A DNA stretch of 64,000 nt from Clostridia bacterium (GCA_017501225.1 JAFVXH010000006.1:882-64881); one strand, 5' to 3'; numbered from the stretch's first letter, positions 1,923-39,402 are shown. Program-made: numbers and translations. The notes: generated by a model from the sequence alone, not told the origin.

Positions 1923-1951
1923 TTGACTTTTTTGAGTAACGGTGATATAAT
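1923..1951 (+). promoter_or_regulatory. sigmaA promoter of mscS
   Basis: TTGACT(1923-1928)-17 bp-TATAAT(1946-1951). Confidence 0.8.
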
Positions 1952-1985
1952 TACACAGCAAGCTAATTTCAAGGAGGCATTAAAT

Positions 1986-2801
1986 ATGGAATGGCTAAAA
2001 AATACTCTTGACATTATTGTTTCTTGGGCAACAAATACAGGATTAAAACTACTTATTGCGCTTGTTCTTATGTTTGTTTCGTTCAAGATAATCAACTGGG
2101 TTGCTAAACGGATCATAAAAAATGGTGAAAAAAAGAAACTCGATAAGACCATTGTAAAAACCATTTCGTATCTCGTTAAGATAGGCGGGAAAGTGATTGT
2201 TACGGTTTGTCTTGTCGGTTACGTTGGCATTGATACGAGTGCTATTACGGCACTGATCGCATCTTTTGGTGTTTGTATCGGACTTGCAGTAAACGGAGCC
2301 GTCTCAAATATCGCAGGAGGAGTTCTGATACTCGTTACGCGTCCCTTCAAGGTGGATGATTTTATTGAAGCGCAAGGCGTTTCCGGAACAGTTGCAGATA
2401 TCCATATGATAAGCACTAAGGTAGTTACGGGAGACAATAAGGTCGTACATATTCCCAACGGAGCGCTTGCGAACGGAAATATTATCAATTATTCCGAAAA
2501 AGAGCTTCGACGTGTTGACTTTAACTTTTCGATTGCGTACGATGCTGATTTTGATAAGGCGAGATCTGTCGTTGAAGATATTCTGAAGTCTCACGAGCTT
2601 GTACTTGATGATCCCGCGCCTTTTGTAAGAATGAGTAAGCATGCAGCTTCATCTATTGATATAGTCGCACGTGCTTGGGTAAAATCCGATGATTATTGGA
2701 CGGTAAATTTTGACGTGCTTGAAAAAGTTAAGGCTGAATTTGATAAGAACCATATCGAGATTCCCTTCGAACAGCTCGATGTTCACGTCAAAAACAATTA
2801 A
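1986..2801 (+). CDS. mscS: Small-conductance mechanosensitive channel
   Basis: Three TM segments, then GLAVNGAVSNIAGGVLILVTRPFKVDDFIE..GTV..I..ISTKVVTGDNKVVHIPNG; AGGAGG RBS before ATG 1986. Confidence 0.95.
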   Translation: MEWLKNTLDIIVSWATNTGLKLLIALVLMFVSFKIINWVAKRIIKNGEKKKLDKTIVKTISYLVKIGGKVIVTVCLVGYVGIDTSAITALIASFGVCIGLAVNGAVSNIAGGVLILVTRPFKVDDFIEAQGVSGTVADIHMISTKVVTGDNKVVHIPNGALANGNIINYSEKELRRVDFNFSIAYDADFDKARSVVEDILKSHELVLDDPAPFVRMSKHAASSIDIVARAWVKSDDYWTVNFDVLEKVKAEFDKNHIEIPFEQLDVHVKNN

Positions 2802-2804
2802 AAT

Positions 2805-2853
2805 AAGGGGGCTGTCTCAAATGCGATTTTAAGAGCCTTTGAGGCAGCCCCTT
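2805..2853. terminator. Long hairpin between mscS and the convergent tRNA-Leu transcript
   Basis: AAGGGGGCTGTCTCAAA...TTTGAGGCAGCCCCTT imperfect inverted repeat. Confidence 0.6.
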
Positions 2854-2857
2854 CCAT

Positions 2858-2878
2858 TGGTGCGGGTAAGAGGACTTG
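2858..2878 (-). repeat. Third copy of the tRNA-Leu(CAG) 3' end (21 nt, CAAGTCCTCTTACCCGCACCA)
   Basis: Plus strand TGGTGCGGGTAAGAGGACTTG is identical to 3459-3479. Confidence 0.95.
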
Positions 2879-3159
2879 GTCTCGTCGCTACGACGCAAAG
2901 CCGAGGTTTTGATTTCGGCTTTGCTTCGCTCCTCGGTCAAGCGCGGCTCTGACAGTCCACCGGACTGTCATTCACTACCGCGCCCCTTCAAGTCCTTTTG
3001 TTCTATTCGCAGCAAACAAAAGACGGCACGCTGTTGCGTACCGTCTTTTGTTTGTGAAGGAGCGATAAAAAAGATATTTTACCTTTTTAATCGATGGATT
3101 TGAACCCAAATATAATTTAATGCTTTTCGACGGAAGGAGAAAAGCTTCCTTAGCACCTT

Positions 3160-3238
3160 TTCACTATTCACTTTTACCTATTACCTAATCGACAAGTTTC
3201 GTAAGAGAAGAGTGAAAAGTGAAGAGTTAAGAGTGAAG
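3160..3238. repeat. Two mutually inverted heptamer arrays
   Basis: TTCACTA TTCACTT TTACCTA TTACCTA (3160-3187) and AGTGAAA AGTGAAG AGTTAAG AGTGAAG (3211-3238). Confidence 0.8.
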
Positions 3239-3279
3239 AAGTAAAAATCGACAAGCTTCTGTCGAAACTTGTCGATTTT

Positions 3280-3303
3280 TGGTGCGGGTAAGAGGACTTG
3301 AAC
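3280..3303 (-). repeat. Second copy of the tRNA-Leu(CAG) 3' end (24 nt, T-loop to CCA)
   Basis: Plus strand TGGTGCGGGTAAGAGGACTTGAAC is identical to 3459-3482. Confidence 0.95.
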
Positions 3304-3420
3304 GCTCCACAAGCACCGCATAAAATGCGGCAGTCATCCAAGGTTTGGTTTTCGCGGTGCTCCATAGCGAATTTTGCAAGCAAAATCCGCGCGTGAAGAA
3401 CCGTCGGCTTTTGCCAAACC

Positions 3421-3459
3421 AACAGAAAAGGGATACGCGATGCGTATCCCTTTTCTGTT
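3421..3459 (-). terminator. Intrinsic terminator right after tRNA-Leu(CAG)
   Basis: AACAGAAAAGGGATACGC-gat-GCGTATCCCTTTTCTGTT perfect stem. Confidence 0.8.
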
Positions 3460-3545
3460 GGTGCGGGTAAGAGGACTTGAACCTCCACGAAGTTGCCCCC
3501 ACTAGAACCTGAATCTAGCGCGTCTGCCAATTCCGCCATACCCGC
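3459..3545 (-). tRNA. tRNA-Leu(CAG)
   Basis: GCGGGTATGGCGGAATTGGCAGACGCGCTAGATTCAGGTTCTAGTGGGGGCAACTTCGTGGAGGTTCAAGTCCTCTTACCCGCACCA; anticodon loop TTCAGGT, long variable arm, encoded CCA; TTGACA-17-TATAAT promoter at 3601-3573. Confidence 0.98.
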
Positions 3546-3988
3546 ATGTTGATTTTGTTATCAACAAATGAGATTATACCACATCAAAATCTCTTTGTCA
3601 ATAGTATTTTTAAGTTTTTTTGGATTATTTTACAACCGAGCGCAAAGCTTCTCGCAATCTTCACTTTTTTGCCGGATTTGAAAAAATATCGATTTTTGTC
3701 AAATCTCGCAAATTCCTTGATTTATTGGAAGGGCTGTGATACCGGGTCGTCAGCGATGCGCTTCTCCAAATCGAAGCACTCCCTCAGCAACCGTAAATCC
3801 CCCCGCCCCATGTGCGTGTTCTCCGTTAAGGATCATACGCATGTAGGGCGGGGTTTTGTCTGTTTTTGGGTTTTTCGCTCCACTTTGCCATCAAAACAAG
3901 GCTTATAAAAAAACTTTTCACCACCGTATTGACAAGGAATTTTCGGTATGATATAGTGAATTTGTAATCAAAAACAAGGGGGATAAAA

Positions 3989-6499
3989 ATGATGAAAAAA
4001 CTCGTTGCCGCTTTCCTGTGTCTGATCATGCTTCTGTCGCTTTTTTCTTGCAAAAAAGGAAGCACTGAAGGTATAGACAATCCCTCAGATCCCGATGGTA
4101 GTACCGCTTTAGATACCTCCATCAACTCAAACACCAACCCTACAAGTGCAAATTACGACTCCGTGTTGCGTGTCTATCGACGTATCGTTGACAGTTATCC
4201 GATCGTCAATCAGAATCCTCGTGCGGTCGCCGCAGAGCTTGGTATTCAAGATGAAGCCGAAATAGAATCTTTCGTTGACTTATATACATCTATCCTTCTG
4301 TTTTATCCCGGCAGAGGGCAAGAGGATCGCGTATCTCCTCACTATAAGCTTGGTTGCGGATATTCTGTAAAGGACCTCAACGGCGACGGCGTGGACGAGC
4401 TTGTTTTGATGAACAAGGATTATGCTGTTATGGCGATTTTCTCGTATGCCGACGGACATCCGGTTTTGCTCGGCAATTATTGGGAAAGAAATGTTTGCTG
4501 GATAGACGGTGACGGACTGATTCACAACCATGGAAGCAGTGGAGCAGATCGTTCGACCAATGCGCTCTATCAAATTGCCGACGGTGGCGACCGCCTCGAG
4601 CTGATTGCCGAGTTCGGTACCGACGGTCACGAATGGATAGACGGGGTTGCTTACACAAAATATTACAAGGTGGTAGATGGCGAAAAGGTTTCTATCACCG
4701 AAAGTGAATGTGCCGCGTTGGTTGAGCAATACGGAAAAGCCCTCGGTTCCGTGTCGGGAGCTGAGGCGACCAAGCAATATTCCGGCATGATCTTTACCTC
4801 GCTCTATACCGAAGCCGAGATCGCTATGGAAATGTACGAGGCGGCGATCAAAGGAGAAATCTGCGTTCTGGATGAGCGCTTAGGTGAGATAAAATTGAAG
4901 AACTGCCGTTTCCCGAGTGACAACGTAAGACTTGACGAATGTGAAATCCTTACCAAAGCAATTTTAGATATGGATCAGGACGGAATCAACGAATACGTGA
5001 TTCAATCCCAAGCAAAGGATCATATCGTATTACGCTACTATGATGGCACAGTTTACAGCTATTGCTTTGACAGCAAGAATTTCTTCAATTTGAATACCGA
5101 CGGTTCTTTTTATTGGATCGATTCTTGCGAATTAGATCATTGCACGCGCGGATACAGTCAAATCGCATTTGAGGGATCATCATTCAGTATCAAAGAAATA
5201 TACAGAATCAAACAGACAAGCCCCTATGATTACGGTGACGGTACCCATGAATATTATGTGGATGGTAAGCAGATCACGCGTGAAGAATTTCGGGATTATT
5301 GTGACTCCAATTGCAGAGGCAAAACAAGAGCGATCTTCTCTCCGCTTGATATTGATACTTCGTGTGAGTATCCGATCTCTTCGGAAAAAGCCTATGAGCT
5401 TGCTTCTGAGTTTTGGGGACTTCAAAGTGGAATGGAAGAGGGGGCTGCCGGAACACGTTATGTGCTCAACATCGTTGTATTGGAAAAGCCGAATAGCGAT
5501 ACACGGTGCTACCGCATCGGTTGTCAGTACGAAGGATATACGAACCACGTAATTGACAGCTTCTACGCTCAACCTCCGACGTCCGTCAGAATACATAAGG
5601 AATTAATTGTAAATGCCATAACGGGAGCGTGTCGGGATTCTATAGACCCCGAATTCGAAGCGGAAGCTGAGGTCGCTATGGAAATGTACGAGGCGGCGAT
5701 CAAGGGAGAAATCTGCGTTGTTGATGAGCACTCGGGTGAGATCAAATTAGAAGACTGCCGTTTCCCGAATAACAACGTAAGCCTCGAAGACTATGGAAGC
5801 CTTGACAAAGCGATCCTGGATATAGACGGCGACGGGATCAACGAATACGTGATCCGGTCACCCCAAAGAGATCATATTATTATGCGTTACTATGACGGCA
5901 AGATCTACAGTTATGGCTTTGATTTCAAAAGTCTTTTCAGGCTAAATACCGACGGAACGTTTTATTGGTATTCCGACGCCGGCGATTCAACGTCCAATTT
6001 GCCAACGGTCGGTTTGAGTCAGATCACGTTTCAGGATTCCTCTATCGTCATCAGGGAAATTTACAAGTTAAAAAATGTTTGTGAATATGCAGAAGAATAT
6101 TACCTTGACGGTTGCCGAGTGACACGGGAAGAATTTTTGGGTTACTACAACAAAAGTGATAAAACCTGGGTACAATTTTCTCCTTTTGAGTTTTCGTGTC
6201 AATATCCGATAACCGCTGAGAAGGCATGGAGTATTGCGGATGATTATTTGGGAAACCCGGATGGAGGACATGACGTCGCAACGGGAAAAACATACTTTTT
6301 CAAGGTCGTCATAACCGAAAAACCAACCGATGGCTCAGAATATTACATCGTGGTTGTGCAGCAATTTTGCTTTAGCCACATCTTCGACGGTTGGCAGATC
6401 TCAAACCCGGACCCTTTATATGAATTTGAAAGATTGGCTGTCAATGCAATCACCGGTGAGTGTTGGAAGTATGTAGATCCCGTTCCCGACGGAAAATGA
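3989..6499 (+). CDS. Multi-module lipoprotein with an internal ~284-aa duplication and DxDxDG motifs
   Basis: Lipobox LFSC; module AMEMYEAAIKGEICV..CRFP..KAILD.D.DGINEYVI occurs twice, 852 nt apart (4811 and 5663); promoter TTGACA-17-TATAGT at 3929-3957. Confidence 0.85.
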   Translation: MMKKLVAAFLCLIMLLSLFSCKKGSTEGIDNPSDPDGSTALDTSINSNTNPTSANYDSVLRVYRRIVDSYPIVNQNPRAVAAELGIQDEAEIESFVDLYTSILLFYPGRGQEDRVSPHYKLGCGYSVKDLNGDGVDELVLMNKDYAVMAIFSYADGHPVLLGNYWERNVCWIDGDGLIHNHGSSGADRSTNALYQIADGGDRLELIAEFGTDGHEWIDGVAYTKYYKVVDGEKVSITESECAALVEQYGKALGSVSGAEATKQYSGMIFTSLYTEAEIAMEMYEAAIKGEICVLDERLGEIKLKNCRFPSDNVRLDECEILTKAILDMDQDGINEYVIQSQAKDHIVLRYYDGTVYSYCFDSKNFFNLNTDGSFYWIDSCELDHCTRGYSQIAFEGSSFSIKEIYRIKQTSPYDYGDGTHEYYVDGKQITREEFRDYCDSNCRGKTRAIFSPLDIDTSCEYPISSEKAYELASEFWGLQSGMEEGAAGTRYVLNIVVLEKPNSDTRCYRIGCQYEGYTNHVIDSFYAQPPTSVRIHKELIVNAITGACRDSIDPEFEAEAEVAMEMYEAAIKGEICVVDEHSGEIKLEDCRFPNNNVSLEDYGSLDKAILDIDGDGINEYVIRSPQRDHIIMRYYDGKIYSYGFDFKSLFRLNTDGTFYWYSDAGDSTSNLPTVGLSQITFQDSSIVIREIYKLKNVCEYAEEYYLDGCRVTREEFLGYYNKSDKTWVQFSPFEFSCQYPITAEKAWSIADDYLGNPDGGHDVATGKTYFFKVVITEKPTDGSEYYIVVVQQFCFSHIFDGWQISNPDPLYEFERLAVNAITGECWKYVDPVPDGK

Positions 6500-6552: not shown

Positions 6553-7494
6553 ATGAGAAAAACCGCAGCCCTTGTTCTTTGCCTGATGATGATCCTGTCG
6601 CTCTTTTCGTGTGATGGAAGCGGCGACCAAGGTCCTTTGCCGACCGAACCGCCCGGCACCACCGCATCTCCCACGACTGAGGCGAGCACGACCGCTCCCC
6701 CTCAGGAAAATCCGGAGCCGACTCCCGAGGATGTCCAAAATGAGCTGGCGCTGCAAGCCTACGGCGCGGCGATCAGAAACGAGATCAACGTATATTACCC
6801 GTTGCTGAACAACGATACACCGACTGAAACTTATTTTGAAAGAATATGTGGCTCGGAAAAAGGCAATCCCATGCGTCAGGCACTGGTGGATATGGACCGG
6901 GACGGAATTGAAGAATTGATCTTGAAATATGGATCCTTTTTTGTCATTCTTCATTTCGAAAATAATAAGGTGTACGGAACCGATTTTCACTTTGGTGCCA
7001 TGGAAATGATCTATACCGACGGTTCTTTTTCCTGGAGTCATACTGACGATATGTTCGGATATGAATGCGGCATCAGCCGGGTTTCGTTCGCAAACGGAAT
7101 CATGAAAGTAGAAGAGCTTTGCAGAAAAGAAGGCGATTCCAGATTTTTTATCAGCGGTGCACAGGTTACAAAGGAGCAATACGATGACTATCTGGACGGT
7201 AACGAAAGAACCCCCGTTGACTTTGCTCCTTTTGATATCTATTTCCTTGATTCCGACGCATTAAAGGCAATAGAACTCGCTTCTGAATATTGGGGGATCA
7301 AGGACGGTGACTTTGATCCCGAAAGGGGACTTAGATACCGTGTGATCTGCAAGAGAAAAATAGATGAAGGACGCTACGAGGTTTCTTTGTACCGCTTTAT
7401 CTACAATCGCTCTTACGAGCATTTTGCACTTGCCACGGTGAACGTGGACACGGGAGAAATCACGGTGGAGAAATATCCAGACGGCAAGGGGTAA
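6553..7494 (+). CDS. Lipoprotein paralogous to the repeated module of the upstream gene
   Basis: Near-identical signal peptide (LCLMMILSLFSC), Pro/Thr linker, DMDRDGIEE, AIELASEYWG, ends PDGKG; AGGAGG RBS. Confidence 0.85.
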   Translation: MRKTAALVLCLMMILSLFSCDGSGDQGPLPTEPPGTTASPTTEASTTAPPQENPEPTPEDVQNELALQAYGAAIRNEINVYYPLLNNDTPTETYFERICGSEKGNPMRQALVDMDRDGIEELILKYGSFFVILHFENNKVYGTDFHFGAMEMIYTDGSFSWSHTDDMFGYECGISRVSFANGIMKVEELCRKEGDSRFFISGAQVTKEQYDDYLDGNERTPVDFAPFDIYFLDSDALKAIELASEYWGIKDGDFDPERGLRYRVICKRKIDEGRYEVSLYRFIYNRSYEHFALATVNVDTGEITVEKYPDGKG

Positions 7495-23897: not shown

Positions 23898-24413
23898 ATG
23901 AAAGACAACAATGTAGGGGCGACCAGTGGTCGCCCGCAAAGAAAAAAGAACCGTTTGGAGCATTATGATTACAGCTCCTGTGGAGCATATTTTTTGACAA
24001 TCTGTACCGTGGATAGACGAAATTATTTCTGGGAAAAAGTTGGAGAGATGATAGATTGTCCGGAAGATGTTAAATTATCTCGATATGGCGACATTGTTAA
24101 TGAAGCAATTCAAAAGATCTCCTCTGTATATCCCGCATTATTGGTTGAAAATTATGTGATTATGCCAAATCATGTGCACTTGTTATTGAGGACTTGTGTC
24201 GATGAGTGCGGGCGACCACTGGTCGCCCCTACAATGTCACGGGTGGTGAATCAGTTGAAAGGATACGTTTCTAAACGAATAGGAAGCACGATTTGGCAGA
24301 AATCATTTCATGACCATATCATACGAAACATCAAGGATTATGAGGAACATATAAAATATATCTACGAAAATCCAATGCGCTGGTCTTATGATGAACTGTA
24401 TTCGGAGGAATAG
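23898..24413 (+). mobile_element. REP-associated tyrosine transposase (RAYT, IS200/Y1 HUH superfamily)
   Basis: RLEHYDYS..GAYFLTICT, YVIMPNHVHLL (HUH), WQKSFHDHIIR, YIYENP (catalytic Tyr). Confidence 0.92.
23912..24233. repeat. Perfect 27-bp inverted pair of GTAG-type REPs inside the RAYT ORF
   Basis: TGTAGGGGCGACCAGTGGTCGCCCGCA (23912-23938) and TGCGGGCGACCACTGGTCGCCCCTACA (24207-24233); each has a GGGCGACCA-n-TGGTCGCCC hairpin. Confidence 0.92.
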
Positions 24414-38726: not shown

Positions 38727-38819
38727 GGAGAGATGGCTGAGCTGGTCTAAGGCGCACGACTGGAAATCGTGTGTTCGGCTAATAACCGACCGGGAGTTCG
38801 AATCTCCCTCTCTCCGCCA
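38727..38819 (+). tRNA. tRNA-Ser(GGA)
   Basis: GGAGAGATGGCTGAGCTGGTCTAAGGCGCACGACTGGAAATCGTGTGTTCGGCTAATAACCGACCGGGAGTTCGAATCTCCCTCTCTCCGCCA; promoter TTGACA-17-TATGAT at 38684-38712; terminator 38820-38860. Confidence 0.98.
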
Positions 38820-38995
38820 AAAACAAAGGCATCACCCAACAGGGAGGTGCCTTTGTTTTTGATGGAGAGCCGGTTGCGAGAATGCCCCGCATTTGCCAAA
38901 TGACAGAATGAGATCTTGGTATACAAAAGGGGCAAATGCACACGAGCAGAGGCGGACAGGACACCGCCGTCGCGCCGCAGGCGTGCTGCGAAGTT

Positions 38996-39022
38996 GAGTT
39001 CAGAATCTCCCTCTCTCCGCCA
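38996..39022 (+). repeat. Second copy of the tRNA-Ser 3' end with a 1-nt insertion in the T loop
   Basis: GAGTTCAGAATCTCCCTCTCTCCGCCA versus GAGTTCGAATCTCCCTCTCTCCGCCA. Confidence 0.93.
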
Positions 39023-39056
39023 AAAAATCCAACTCTAAGGAGTTGGATTTTTTCAT

Positions 39057-39245
39057 TTGTGCCGAGGGCACAACATCATTTGACCGGAGGTCAACATCGT
39101 TTCGGAGCGAGAAGTTGCTTCGCAACCTCGCGAGAACATCATTGCCGTGTTACGGCACAAATGAACGATGTTGCGACAAGTCGCAAATGATGTGCTTCGC
39201 AATGATGTGATGCTTCGCATCAATGAAGTTGCGCTCCGCGCAAAC
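39057..39245. other. Branched palindromic element (AACATCAT / ATGATGT units, each followed by a short hairpin)
   Basis: AACATC(A/G)T at 39072, 39093, 39135; complementary A(C/T)GA(T/A)GT at 39166, 39187, 39202, 39223; internal hairpins such as TTGACC-gga-GGTCAA and TGCGAC-aa-GTCGCA. Confidence 0.75.
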
Positions 39246-39382
39246 GGAAAGCGGGCGGTGCCTTTGTTTTTTGTGGAAAGAAGCACACGATGAAGAGCTC
39301 CGCGAATTGTCGCTTGCGGCAATTACGCCATAGCGTGCGCATAGATAAATAAGGGATTAAGGGCGCACGGTCGCGCACGCTT

Positions 39383-39402
39383 GAGTTCCGAATCTCCCAT
39401 CT
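39383..39402 (+). repeat. Third, degenerate copy of the tRNA-Ser 3' end
   Basis: GAGTTCCGAATCTCCCATCT, with an extra base at the same T-loop position as copy 2. Confidence 0.7.

Follow-up and report, generated by a model that had tools for sequence, protein, structure and literature searches.

Extra copies of the tRNA-Leu(CAG) 3' end are end pieces of stacked, non-coding tRNA-linked modules in an uncultured gut Clostridia genome

Two exact copies of a tRNA 3' end behind its own gene

The window analysed here is a stretch of 64,000 nt (JAFVXH010000006.1:882-64881) on contig C3 of a metagenome-assembled genome (MAG) of a Clostridia bacterium (GCA_017501225.1; 23 contigs, 1.74 Mb), and the subject is its minus-strand tRNA-Leu(CAG) locus. 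The 3' end of this tRNA recurs twice behind the gene, and the extra copies are the 3' end pieces (termed S) of small non-coding modules of the tRNA-linked-repeat (TLR) kind, three of which are stacked at the locus (Table 1). The finding is real and ordinary for the genus, and it represents one of a poorly understood kind of element.

Identical calls for the tRNA gene (3459-3545) were obtained with ARAGORN and Rfam (tRNA model, 53.5 bits). Its last 21 nt, CAAGTCCTCTTACCCGCACCA, are found exactly at three sites, all on the minus strand: within the tRNA itself (3459-3479), at 3280-3300 and at 2858-2878. None of 100 shuffles matched this 21-mer, and no further copy is present in the remainder of the 1.74-Mb genome. 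The exact identity amounts to 24 nt for the proximal copy (3280-3303) and 21 nt for the distal copy, and the likeness of the proximal copy reaches 34 nt if one inserted C is allowed (GTGGAG-C-GTTCAAG). Both copies terminate in CCA, and a strong hairpin with a T-run follows directly after each. A preliminary description of the stretch had reported the two copies, their ends at CCA and a terminator-like stem belonging to each, and all of this holds. The 661-nt Leu region folds far more strongly than shuffled sequence (z = -13).

The same description took the spacers between the copies to encode nothing plausible. As far as genes are concerned this is correct, since the open reading frames of the spacers (121 aa and 75 aa) have no Pfam match and one of them overlaps the tRNA, and a protein-coding reading was rejected on these grounds. 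The spacers are not anonymous sequence, however, but members of repeat families that are present elsewhere in the genome and in relatives.

With one mismatch allowed, the Leu(CAG) 21-mer was found in 45 of 61 genomes of the genus, once in 29 and two to four times in 16. The spacing of the repeated 21-mers is mostly 170-200 nt, with further cases at 335 nt and at 0.9-8.8 kb. Module number and content vary between species of the genus. An error of assembly had been named in the preliminary description as something that would refute it. The MAG is indeed divided into 23 contigs, several of which (C10, C14/C15, C16, C8) end within such repeats, where assemblers struggle; yet none of the 100 shuffles matched, and the same architecture is seen in dozens of independent MAGs from different studies. 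An artefact is unlikely because one independent MAG, G002, shares the tRNA, the first unit and the copy (90% identity) and differs in the inserted base, and because 16 of the 45 genus genomes with the 21-mer have two or more copies. Taken together, chance resemblance or misassembly is highly improbable as an account of the locus.

Three modules stacked at the Leu(CAG) locus

Module 1, which ends in the proximal copy, is a divergent unit whose parts are ordered as in the common unit described below. Homologues are located behind tRNA-Leu(CAG) in G002 (90% identity), G014, G193 and G005. The inserted base of the G002 homologue is A where the window has C, and stem H2 covaries among the homologues (GCACCGC/GCGGTGC versus CGCCGCG/CGCGGCG). 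In G014 the T-stem of the tRNA itself differs (GAAGG/CCTTT), and both downstream copies share that change.

Module 2 belongs to a different repeat, family A, and starts directly after the CCA of the first copy. Family A also starts directly after the CCA of tRNA-Ser(CGA) (C18) and tRNA-Arg(CCG) (C10/C16, 92% identity), as well as of tRNA-Tyr, tRNA-Cys and two tRNA-end copies, so that at least six tRNAs or tRNA-end copies are involved in all. The stem of its terminator varies among copies, and the internal copy of the terminator arm always matches the stem. A family A copy at C4:259933 is without the block of 7-mers and without one arm copy, and copies at 89-92% identity are present in another family of the order. 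At the Leu(CAG) locus, family A seems to be an insertion that separates two older units. The second of these, module 3, ends in the distal copy and has a homologue in G023 (L006) that follows tRNA-Leu(CAG) directly and whose end copy, CAAATCCCCTTACTCACACCA, has diverged.

Units behind other tRNA genes of the genome

All 40 tRNA genes of the genome were checked for downstream copies of their own 3' ends. At least 15 of the 40 have a hairpin-rich unit of 110-140 nt just after the terminator. The 3' end recurs exactly 125-185 nt downstream of tRNA-Pro(TGG), Leu(CAG), Ser(GGA), Ala(GGC) and Leu(TAG), and approximately 12 more tRNAs have a degenerate direct copy, scoring above shuffle controls, that ends about 140-170 nt downstream. 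These degenerate loci often contain an inverted copy as well, about 35-65 nt downstream and directly behind the terminator. The copies share an oddity in that the 3' strand of the T-stem and the acceptor strand are those of the local tRNA, while additional bases, most commonly a single A or T following TTC, are found on the 5' side of the T-arm, and TT takes the place of the first two bases of the T-stem. Behind tRNA-Ala, a stretch of about 88 nt comprising the tRNA end, the terminator and the antisense 'A piece' described below is duplicated in this genome.

Two such units are located behind tRNA-Ser(GGA) (38727-39402), with end pieces TTGAGTTCaGAATCTCCC... and TTGAGTTCcGAATCTCCC; another hairpin-rich element of about 190 nt lies between them, and the second unit scores 84.8 bits with covariance model R1 (see below). 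Many contigs of this MAG end within tRNA-linked repeats. At one contig end (G000 C8:1-154), tRNA-Gln(CTG) precedes its terminator and a stretch that repeats its 3' part in inverted orientation, and more copies of the tRNA-Gln(CTG) 3' end are found at another contig end (G000 C4:263900-264364).

Anatomy and folding of the common unit

The common unit is composed, in order, of a terminator, the A piece, hairpin H1, a UAU-type linker, stem H2, TT, a T-arm-like hairpin and the 3' strand of the local tRNA. The A piece is antisense to the T-arm of the local tRNA (for example GAATCGAACCC) and sometimes to the acceptor strand also; at some loci the complementarity takes in the entire tRNA end, as for tRNA-Gly(CCC), where TGGAGCAGATGACGGG agrees at 16 of 16 positions. 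H1 is highly variable in sequence, yet a near-perfect palindrome. H2 is a conserved stem, RCGTGCG...CGCACGY, flanking a variable interior, and its strands are swapped in the unit of tRNA-Glu(TTC). The T-arm-like hairpin has an 8-nt loop, usually with one extra A or T after TTC, and runs on into sequence identical to the 3' strand of the local T-stem, the acceptor strand and CCA.

For most of the units that were folded, the minimum-energy structure is a three-way junction closed by the pairing of the A piece with the T-arm-like piece. H2 and the T-arm stem are 97% paired over 98 distinct sequences, with 121 double changes, a result reached by none of 500 shuffles. In 44 units the A piece contains a base complementary to the one inserted in the loop, and in 29 the inserted base bulges out. 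The pairs of H1 comprise 765 Watson-Crick, 5 G-T, 10 A-C and 9 other; the pairing is thus strand-symmetric with no excess of G-U, and H2 and the T-arm have few G-U pairs as well. Some H1 loops differ solely by an inverted centre (AA versus TT), as expected for DNA palindromes. A hammerhead-like core within the three-way junction was rejected by eye, the conserved core motifs not being present across units. A tRNA mimic with an acceptor stem was dropped as a general account, since a complementary 5' strand occurs in some units (Ser, Gly) and not in those of Leu, Ala and Pro.

Distribution in the genus and the order

Covariance model R1, which represents the commonest unit type, was used to search 41 genomes of the genus and 141 genomes sampled from the order, this genome included. 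It matched 15 units in this genome and found 1-15 units each in 37 of the 41 genus genomes; among the 141 genomes of the order, two others only had matches. A same-strand tRNA is located upstream, in the DNA fetched, of 69 of the 98 unique units. The first unit begins 47-62 nt after the tRNA (47 units) and the second at about 205-234 nt. Eleven kinds of tRNA have units behind them, in addition to Met, Pro and Glu(CTC) from this genome, and an exact tRNA copy of at least 15 nt is contained in 20 of the 69 tRNA-linked units.

The motif CGCACGYTTGRGTTCWGAWYC is almost confined to MAGs of uncultured gut Eubacteriales, Clostridia and Oscillospiraceae. A tRNA lies upstream on the same strand in the fetched locus for 33 of its 55 occurrences, and the distance from tRNA to motif is 124-148 nt for the first unit and about 295-612 nt for later units of an array, or more where DNA has been inserted.

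Unit ends match the neighbouring tRNA

The T-loop of a unit is the T-loop of the local tRNA (TTCGAAT, TTCGATT, TTCGAGT, TTCGACT or TTCAAAT) with an inserted base. After the T-loop, exact identity continues for 3-23 nt, and in one case for 56 nt across the whole terminator, before an abrupt stop; many units have 3-10 nt of the tRNA strand only and no CCA. The tracts of identity that extend past CCA into the terminator argue for duplication of DNA over selection on a tRNA-like RNA end. One MAG has tRNA-Gly arrays in which every tandem unit shares one truncated copy, which indicates that those arrays grew by local duplication and not by repeated integration.

The bodies of the units are 62% identical at the same tRNA kind (between species) versus 58% across kinds, with the best cross-kind pairs at 75-82%. 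A tree of the units has 29 changes of tRNA kind (minimum 10; about 44 in shuffles). Strict vertical lineages for each tRNA were rejected on the basis of the body identities, although the 29 changes are still fewer than in shuffles. From bodies that have diverged about equally within and across kinds, combined with ends that match the local tRNA, it follows that the bodies move or are turned over and that the ends are either retained or formed anew to fit the adjacent tRNA.

A reading as DNA-level repeats

The reading we consider most likely, at roughly even odds, takes the units to be non-autonomous, DNA-level repeats, with recombination or template switching at the tRNA T-arm as the way in which they multiply. 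In the manner of miniature inverted-repeat transposable elements (MITEs), repetitive extragenic palindromes (REPs) or folded attachment (att) sites, the units would establish themselves in the 3' flank of tRNA genes and increase in number there. The exchange or template switch would occur between the T-arm of the tRNA and the T-arm-like end of the unit, and each event would leave a hybrid end composed of a unit-specific 5' half and the exact tRNA 3' end, sometimes with the terminator too. Tandem arrays could then arise through unequal exchange between the repeats. The strand-symmetric, near-perfect pairing and the identity tracts reaching into terminators favour constraint or copying at the DNA level. 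The sequences themselves show the anatomy of the units, their linkage to tRNA genes, the agreement of their ends with the local tRNA, the covariation of the stems, the different copy numbers of species and the nesting of one family in another; a recombination mechanism, an enzyme to serve it and the absence of an RNA function are our inference.

Comparison with the tRNA-linked repeats of Escherichia coli

The closest known parallel is offered by the TLRs of E. coli. These number 22 and are distributed over ten loci, each of 1-5 TLRs that follow tRNA or rRNA genes, and their 3' ends are identical over 18-19 bp to the 3' end of the upstream gene (PMC8144298). The same source summarises the earlier work on them (Egan & Landy 1978; Rudd 1999), with RtT/rttR of tyrT-tyrV and RrA/B/F of the rrn operons among them; they have been known since 1978 without a function, except for RrA/B/F, which are read-through transcripts formed between two terminators and bind Hfq and CsrA (PMC8144298). 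The tyrV array of E. coli K-12 comprises three 178-bp units, each of which ends in AATCCTTCCCCCACCACCA and contains an antisense GGGGAAGGAT and a T-arm-like AAGGTTCGAC.

The units described here are likewise non-coding, on the same strand and immediately behind a tRNA, present at several loci per genome with 1-5 units each, situated between terminators and of no known maker. In both systems the end of the upstream gene is copied exactly (18-19 nt in E. coli; 21-24 nt here) with identity that starts in the T-loop, and such end identity is seen here also for Pro, Ser, Ala and Leu(TAG). The short antisense copy of the tRNA end and the T-arm-like piece are further features in common with the tyrV units. 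In contrast to TLRs, the units here are 110-140 nt in length and form a three-way junction, with a T-arm-like hairpin that abuts the copy and usually one extra base; they occupy a far larger share of the tRNA genes, and several unrelated families, including the 7-mer-repeat element, may meet in one locus. The hosts differ as well, being an uncultured gut Clostridia/Oscillospiraceae-like genus here and an enterobacterium for TLRs.

With the Rfam model of RtT (RF00391) and a cut-off of E<=1, neither the window region nor four loci with units nor the genome as a whole gave a match, and the E. coli control was matched; searches of the region and the four loci with Rfam returned tRNA and chance matches only. 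A literature search on repeats downstream of tRNAs, MITEs at tRNA genes and accretion of cis-mobilizable elements (CIMEs) gave nothing specific. The Leu units have the features of position and end identity that define TLRs, together with a dual-terminator layout and a single upstream promoter, and no homology to RtT.

The hallmarks shared with the E. coli TLRs, of which RrA/B/F are transcribed by read-through, processed and bound by Hfq and CsrA (PMC8144298), raise the question of whether the units are small RNA genes of the TLR type. Transcription from the strong tRNA promoter would read through the first terminator and be followed by processing, in which the tRNA 3'-end machinery would cut and trim, since the unit shares the T-arm, acceptor and CCA end. 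The product would serve as a regulator or sponge, possibly by using its A piece to pair with the T-arm of the tRNA that it follows, or of that tRNA's precursor. The sole good promoter is that of the tRNA, the units are always on the tRNA strand at a fixed offset, and the E. coli tyrV units also have the antisense piece GGGGAAGGAT. The stems covary strongly in a family that is kept in 37 of 41 genus genomes, but the pairs are not enriched for G-U (5 G-T against 10 A-C in H1, and few in H2 and the T-arm), and the bodies turn over fast, to about 60% identity. Nor do the ends fit well with a processed RNA: identity to the tRNA sometimes continues through the terminator, and many units have a tRNA strand of just 3-10 nt that lacks CCA. 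Together with the lack of any Rfam match, RtT included, these features make a small RNA gene a rather unlikely explanation, though one to be taken seriously.

Larger inserts and candidate enzymes

A tRNA 3' end repeated directly, with the boundary falling in the T-loop, is the hallmark by which tRNA-integrating elements are classically recognised. The copies could accordingly be scars of the attL/attR type, left by serial integrations of a tyrosine integrase at the tRNA 3' end, with spacers that are decayed islands or CIME-like elements moved in trans. The att repeats of islands, prophages, integrative and conjugative elements and CIMEs are similarly direct repeats of a tRNA 3' end that bracket an insert; their boundary falls within a tRNA loop, they are stacked in tandem, and the tRNA at the proximal end stays functional. 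Unlike att and CIME arrays, the units here have no integrase or other gene, measure 140-230 nt, include one family at many tRNAs, contain an inverted copy (the A piece) in each unit and occur with tandem-duplicated truncated copies.

In several species of the genus, tRNA-Leu(CAG) also precedes inserts of 0.9-9 kb (L099, L100, L101, L103, L006; G190, G198, G200, G005, G023), which bear genes where examined. Each of these ends in a tRNA copy of at least 50 nt that starts in the anticodon loop and adjoins a conserved CACCGAGGT...TTACC motif. Two inserts of 3-4 kb whose open reading frames were scanned contain genes (an M48-like peptidase and a BspA-type leucine-rich repeat protein) and no integrase. 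The larger inserts look like cassettes. The tRNA-Leu(CAG) gene is therefore used by larger, cassette-like inserts too, and the copies in the window are a short class limited to the T-arm. In G002 and G009, genes resembling those of mobile elements or islands are found right behind the tRNA or a tRNA copy, which is compatible with att scars. The copies of the window, however, are short (21-34 nt, T-arm only) and without either the anticodon-loop start or the arm motif of the larger inserts.

As an observation on another tRNA, about 1.4 kb of cargo (L041 2720-4160, in one MAG) splits the terminator hairpin between two tRNA-Gly units, so that the arms of the hairpin now flank the insert; the cargo comprises a membrane-protein gene, a fragment of an ABC ATPase and a GTAG repeat.

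The genome has four tyrosine recombinase genes, with PF00589 matches on contigs C18, C8 and C2 only, and two of the four are Xer-like by size. One integrase does adjoin a tRNA, a point in favour of att scars: the gene for this 423-aa tyrosine integrase (G000 C8:31623-33087) lies close to the end of a contig, some 800 nt downstream of tRNA-Pro(GGG), and probably belongs to a genuine integrated element. The PF00589 search found no integrase on the window contig, C3. Homologous units are present at 11 or more tRNA kinds, which a single site-specific integrase would not bring about, and the A piece, the fixed offset and the tandem-duplicated truncated copies are all unexpected for att scars. We consider serial integrase scars distinctly unlikely. 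The preliminary description had proposed serial micro-insertions at a tRNA att site. The serial small insertions stand, in that three modules with their own terminators vary in number and content between species. A classical att site served by an integrase is not supported, given a contig without integrase and non-coding modules of 140-230 nt that occur at a fixed offset behind at least 11-14 tRNA kinds. As to the alternative of that description, a processed tRNA-like RNA array, the tRNA-like acceptor pairing is inconsistent and the helix statistics look strand-symmetric and not RNA-like; it may nevertheless hold, since E. coli TLRs of this design do yield processed RNAs (PMC8144298).

Two other modes of mobilisation were rejected. 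A retro-element or primer-binding-site origin was dropped, no reverse transcriptase having been found in the assembly, which is 95.5% complete. Mobilisation by a HUH or RAYT (REP-associated tyrosine transposase) enzyme was rejected because the only Y1-like gene has different GTAG repeats and no link to the units. This gene, a weak Y1/HUH RAYT-like match at 23898-24413, is situated some 170 nt downstream of tRNA-Leu(CAA) and contains, within its reading frame, two inverted GTAGGGGCGACC...GGTCGCCCCTAC repeats; similar GTAG repeats are present in the L041 cargo.

Weighing the DNA-level reading

The design of the units can be compared with that of known DNA elements. MITEs and REPs with their composite forms (bacterial interspersed mosaic elements, BIMEs) are likewise small, non-coding, rich in hairpins and multi-copy, have inverted-repeat ends, lie between genes near terminators and break assemblies. 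In contrast to MITEs, the ends of the units here (the inverted A and S pieces, which covary) change with the local tRNA, and neither a fixed target duplication nor a parent transposase was found. The folded attP of CTX-phi and of integrative mobile elements exploiting Xer (IMEX; XerCD) and the attC of integrons similarly contain two inverted copies of a site about 90 nt apart, able to form a hairpin that mimics the duplex target. Further points of likeness to IMEX and attC are extra bases that bulge out, a hybrid end (element half plus exact target half), a branched tip, tandem arrays and the occasional cargo between repeats seen in relatives. The units here differ from those in that the target is the T-arm of a tRNA and not dif or attI, and no phage or replication genes were found, IntI not having been searched for specifically. 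The likeness to folded single-strand att sites is one of design only.

Several points weigh against repeats that multiply at the DNA level. No clean pair of empty and filled sites with a defined target duplication was found, the flanks being different between species. The searches of the genome for reverse transcriptase, tyrosine recombinases and HUH enzymes identified none that makes the units; the 95.5% completeness of the assembly applies to the missing reverse transcriptase, the window contig is without an integrase, and the RAYT-like gene has different GTAG repeats of its own, as stated above. Near-perfect Watson-Crick pairing could also come from a young or strongly selected RNA, and the fixed orientation, the fixed offset behind the terminator and the second terminator after the unit would also be the pattern of a small RNA produced by read-through, like RrA/B/F of E. 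coli (PMC8144298). The matching of the A piece and of the 5' half of the T-stem to each local tRNA is without a mechanistic account. Finally, the Leu-type units are too divergent for R1 to find, and their placement in the same superfamily is based on the shared order of parts and on H2 covariation in five sequences only.

A broader proposal is that these units and the E. coli TLRs reflect one general, undescribed process in which the ends of elements are written from the T-arm and acceptor strand of the neighbouring tRNA. We regard this as unlikely and put it forward as a speculation. Such a process might consist of host recombinases acting on a folded single-strand hairpin, or of programmed template switching. 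If true, tRNA-anchored arrays would be able to hold cargo genes and would form an integron-like capture platform without an integrase of its own.

Neither the origin of TLRs nor, for most of them, the function has been explained since 1978. The genus provides a much richer data set: hundreds of units follow at least a dozen kinds of tRNA, their ends change with the neighbouring tRNA, the body is a conserved three-way junction, the extra base always has the same place, and both tandem arrays and nested families occur. With such a set of units it becomes a testable question how a copy of the tRNA end arises beside its gene, and whether the element is one of RNA or of DNA. The answer bears on the role of tRNA genes as hot spots for foreign DNA. 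In practical terms, the units cause metagenome assemblies to break at tRNA genes, and a partial copy may pass for an att scar of an island.

Features of the locus and its surroundings

Table 1. Coordinates of the tRNA-Leu(CAG) locus in the window, listed in the direction of transcription of the tRNA
Feature	Position	Strand	Remarks
Promoter of tRNA-Leu(CAG)	3573..3601	-	TTGACA, 17 nt, TG-TATAAT; 12/12 positions match
tRNA-Leu(CAG) gene	3459..3545	-	CCA encoded; ARAGORN, Rfam
Terminator T0	3418..3462	-	45-nt palindrome; outer pairs are the tRNA's own ACCA and downstream TGGT
Module 1, 'Leu-1'-type tRNA-linked unit	3280..3417	-	
Module 1, hairpin H1	3367-3390	-	UAU linker follows
Module 1, stem H2	3354-3362 paired with 3311-3319	-	
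Module 1, end piece S1	3280-3313	-	GTGGAG-C-GTTCAAGTCCTCTTACCCGCACCA; 3280-3303 is an exact 24-nt tRNA copy
Module 2, 'family A' repeat	3055..3279	-	Starts directly after CCA of copy 1
Module 2, own terminator	3244-3279	-	
Module 2, 7-mer repeats	3203-3242	-	TTCACTN
Module 2, second copy of the terminator's 3' arm	3187-3201	-	
Module 2, complementary 7-mers	3154-3186	-	
Module 2, hairpin	3122-3145	-	
Module 2, generic T-arm-like piece	3095-3108	-	TGGGTTCAAATCCA
Module 2, tail hairpin	3064-3092	-	
Terminator X	3013..3054	-	19-bp stem, A-run and T-run; part of older module 3
Module 3, 'Leu-2'-type tRNA-linked unit	2858..3012	-	
Module 3, degenerate inverted copy of tRNA 3' end	2985-3012	-	
Module 3, nested hairpin	2941-2984	-	GTAG-type, REP-like; GGCGCGGTAGTGAATGACAGTCCGGTGGACTGTCAGAGCCGCGC
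Module 3, hairpins	2895-2924 and 2884-2894	-	
Module 3, tRNA copy within end piece S2	2858-2878	-	Exact 21-nt copy
Terminator Y	2800..2853	-	Long hairpin and T-run; common to convergent MscS-like gene 1923-2801 (+)

The promoter of tRNA-Leu(CAG) is the sole promoter of consensus grade in the region. Two large open reading frames that adjoin it, 3989-6499 (836 aa) and 6553-7494 (313 aa), have no Pfam match. The nested hairpin of module 3 looks like a separate REP-like repeat lodged within the module, and the stretch that contains it (2932-2989) recurs many times in relatives. Many copies of the GTAG-type hairpin itself are present at 82-95% identity in relatives, including other families of the order.

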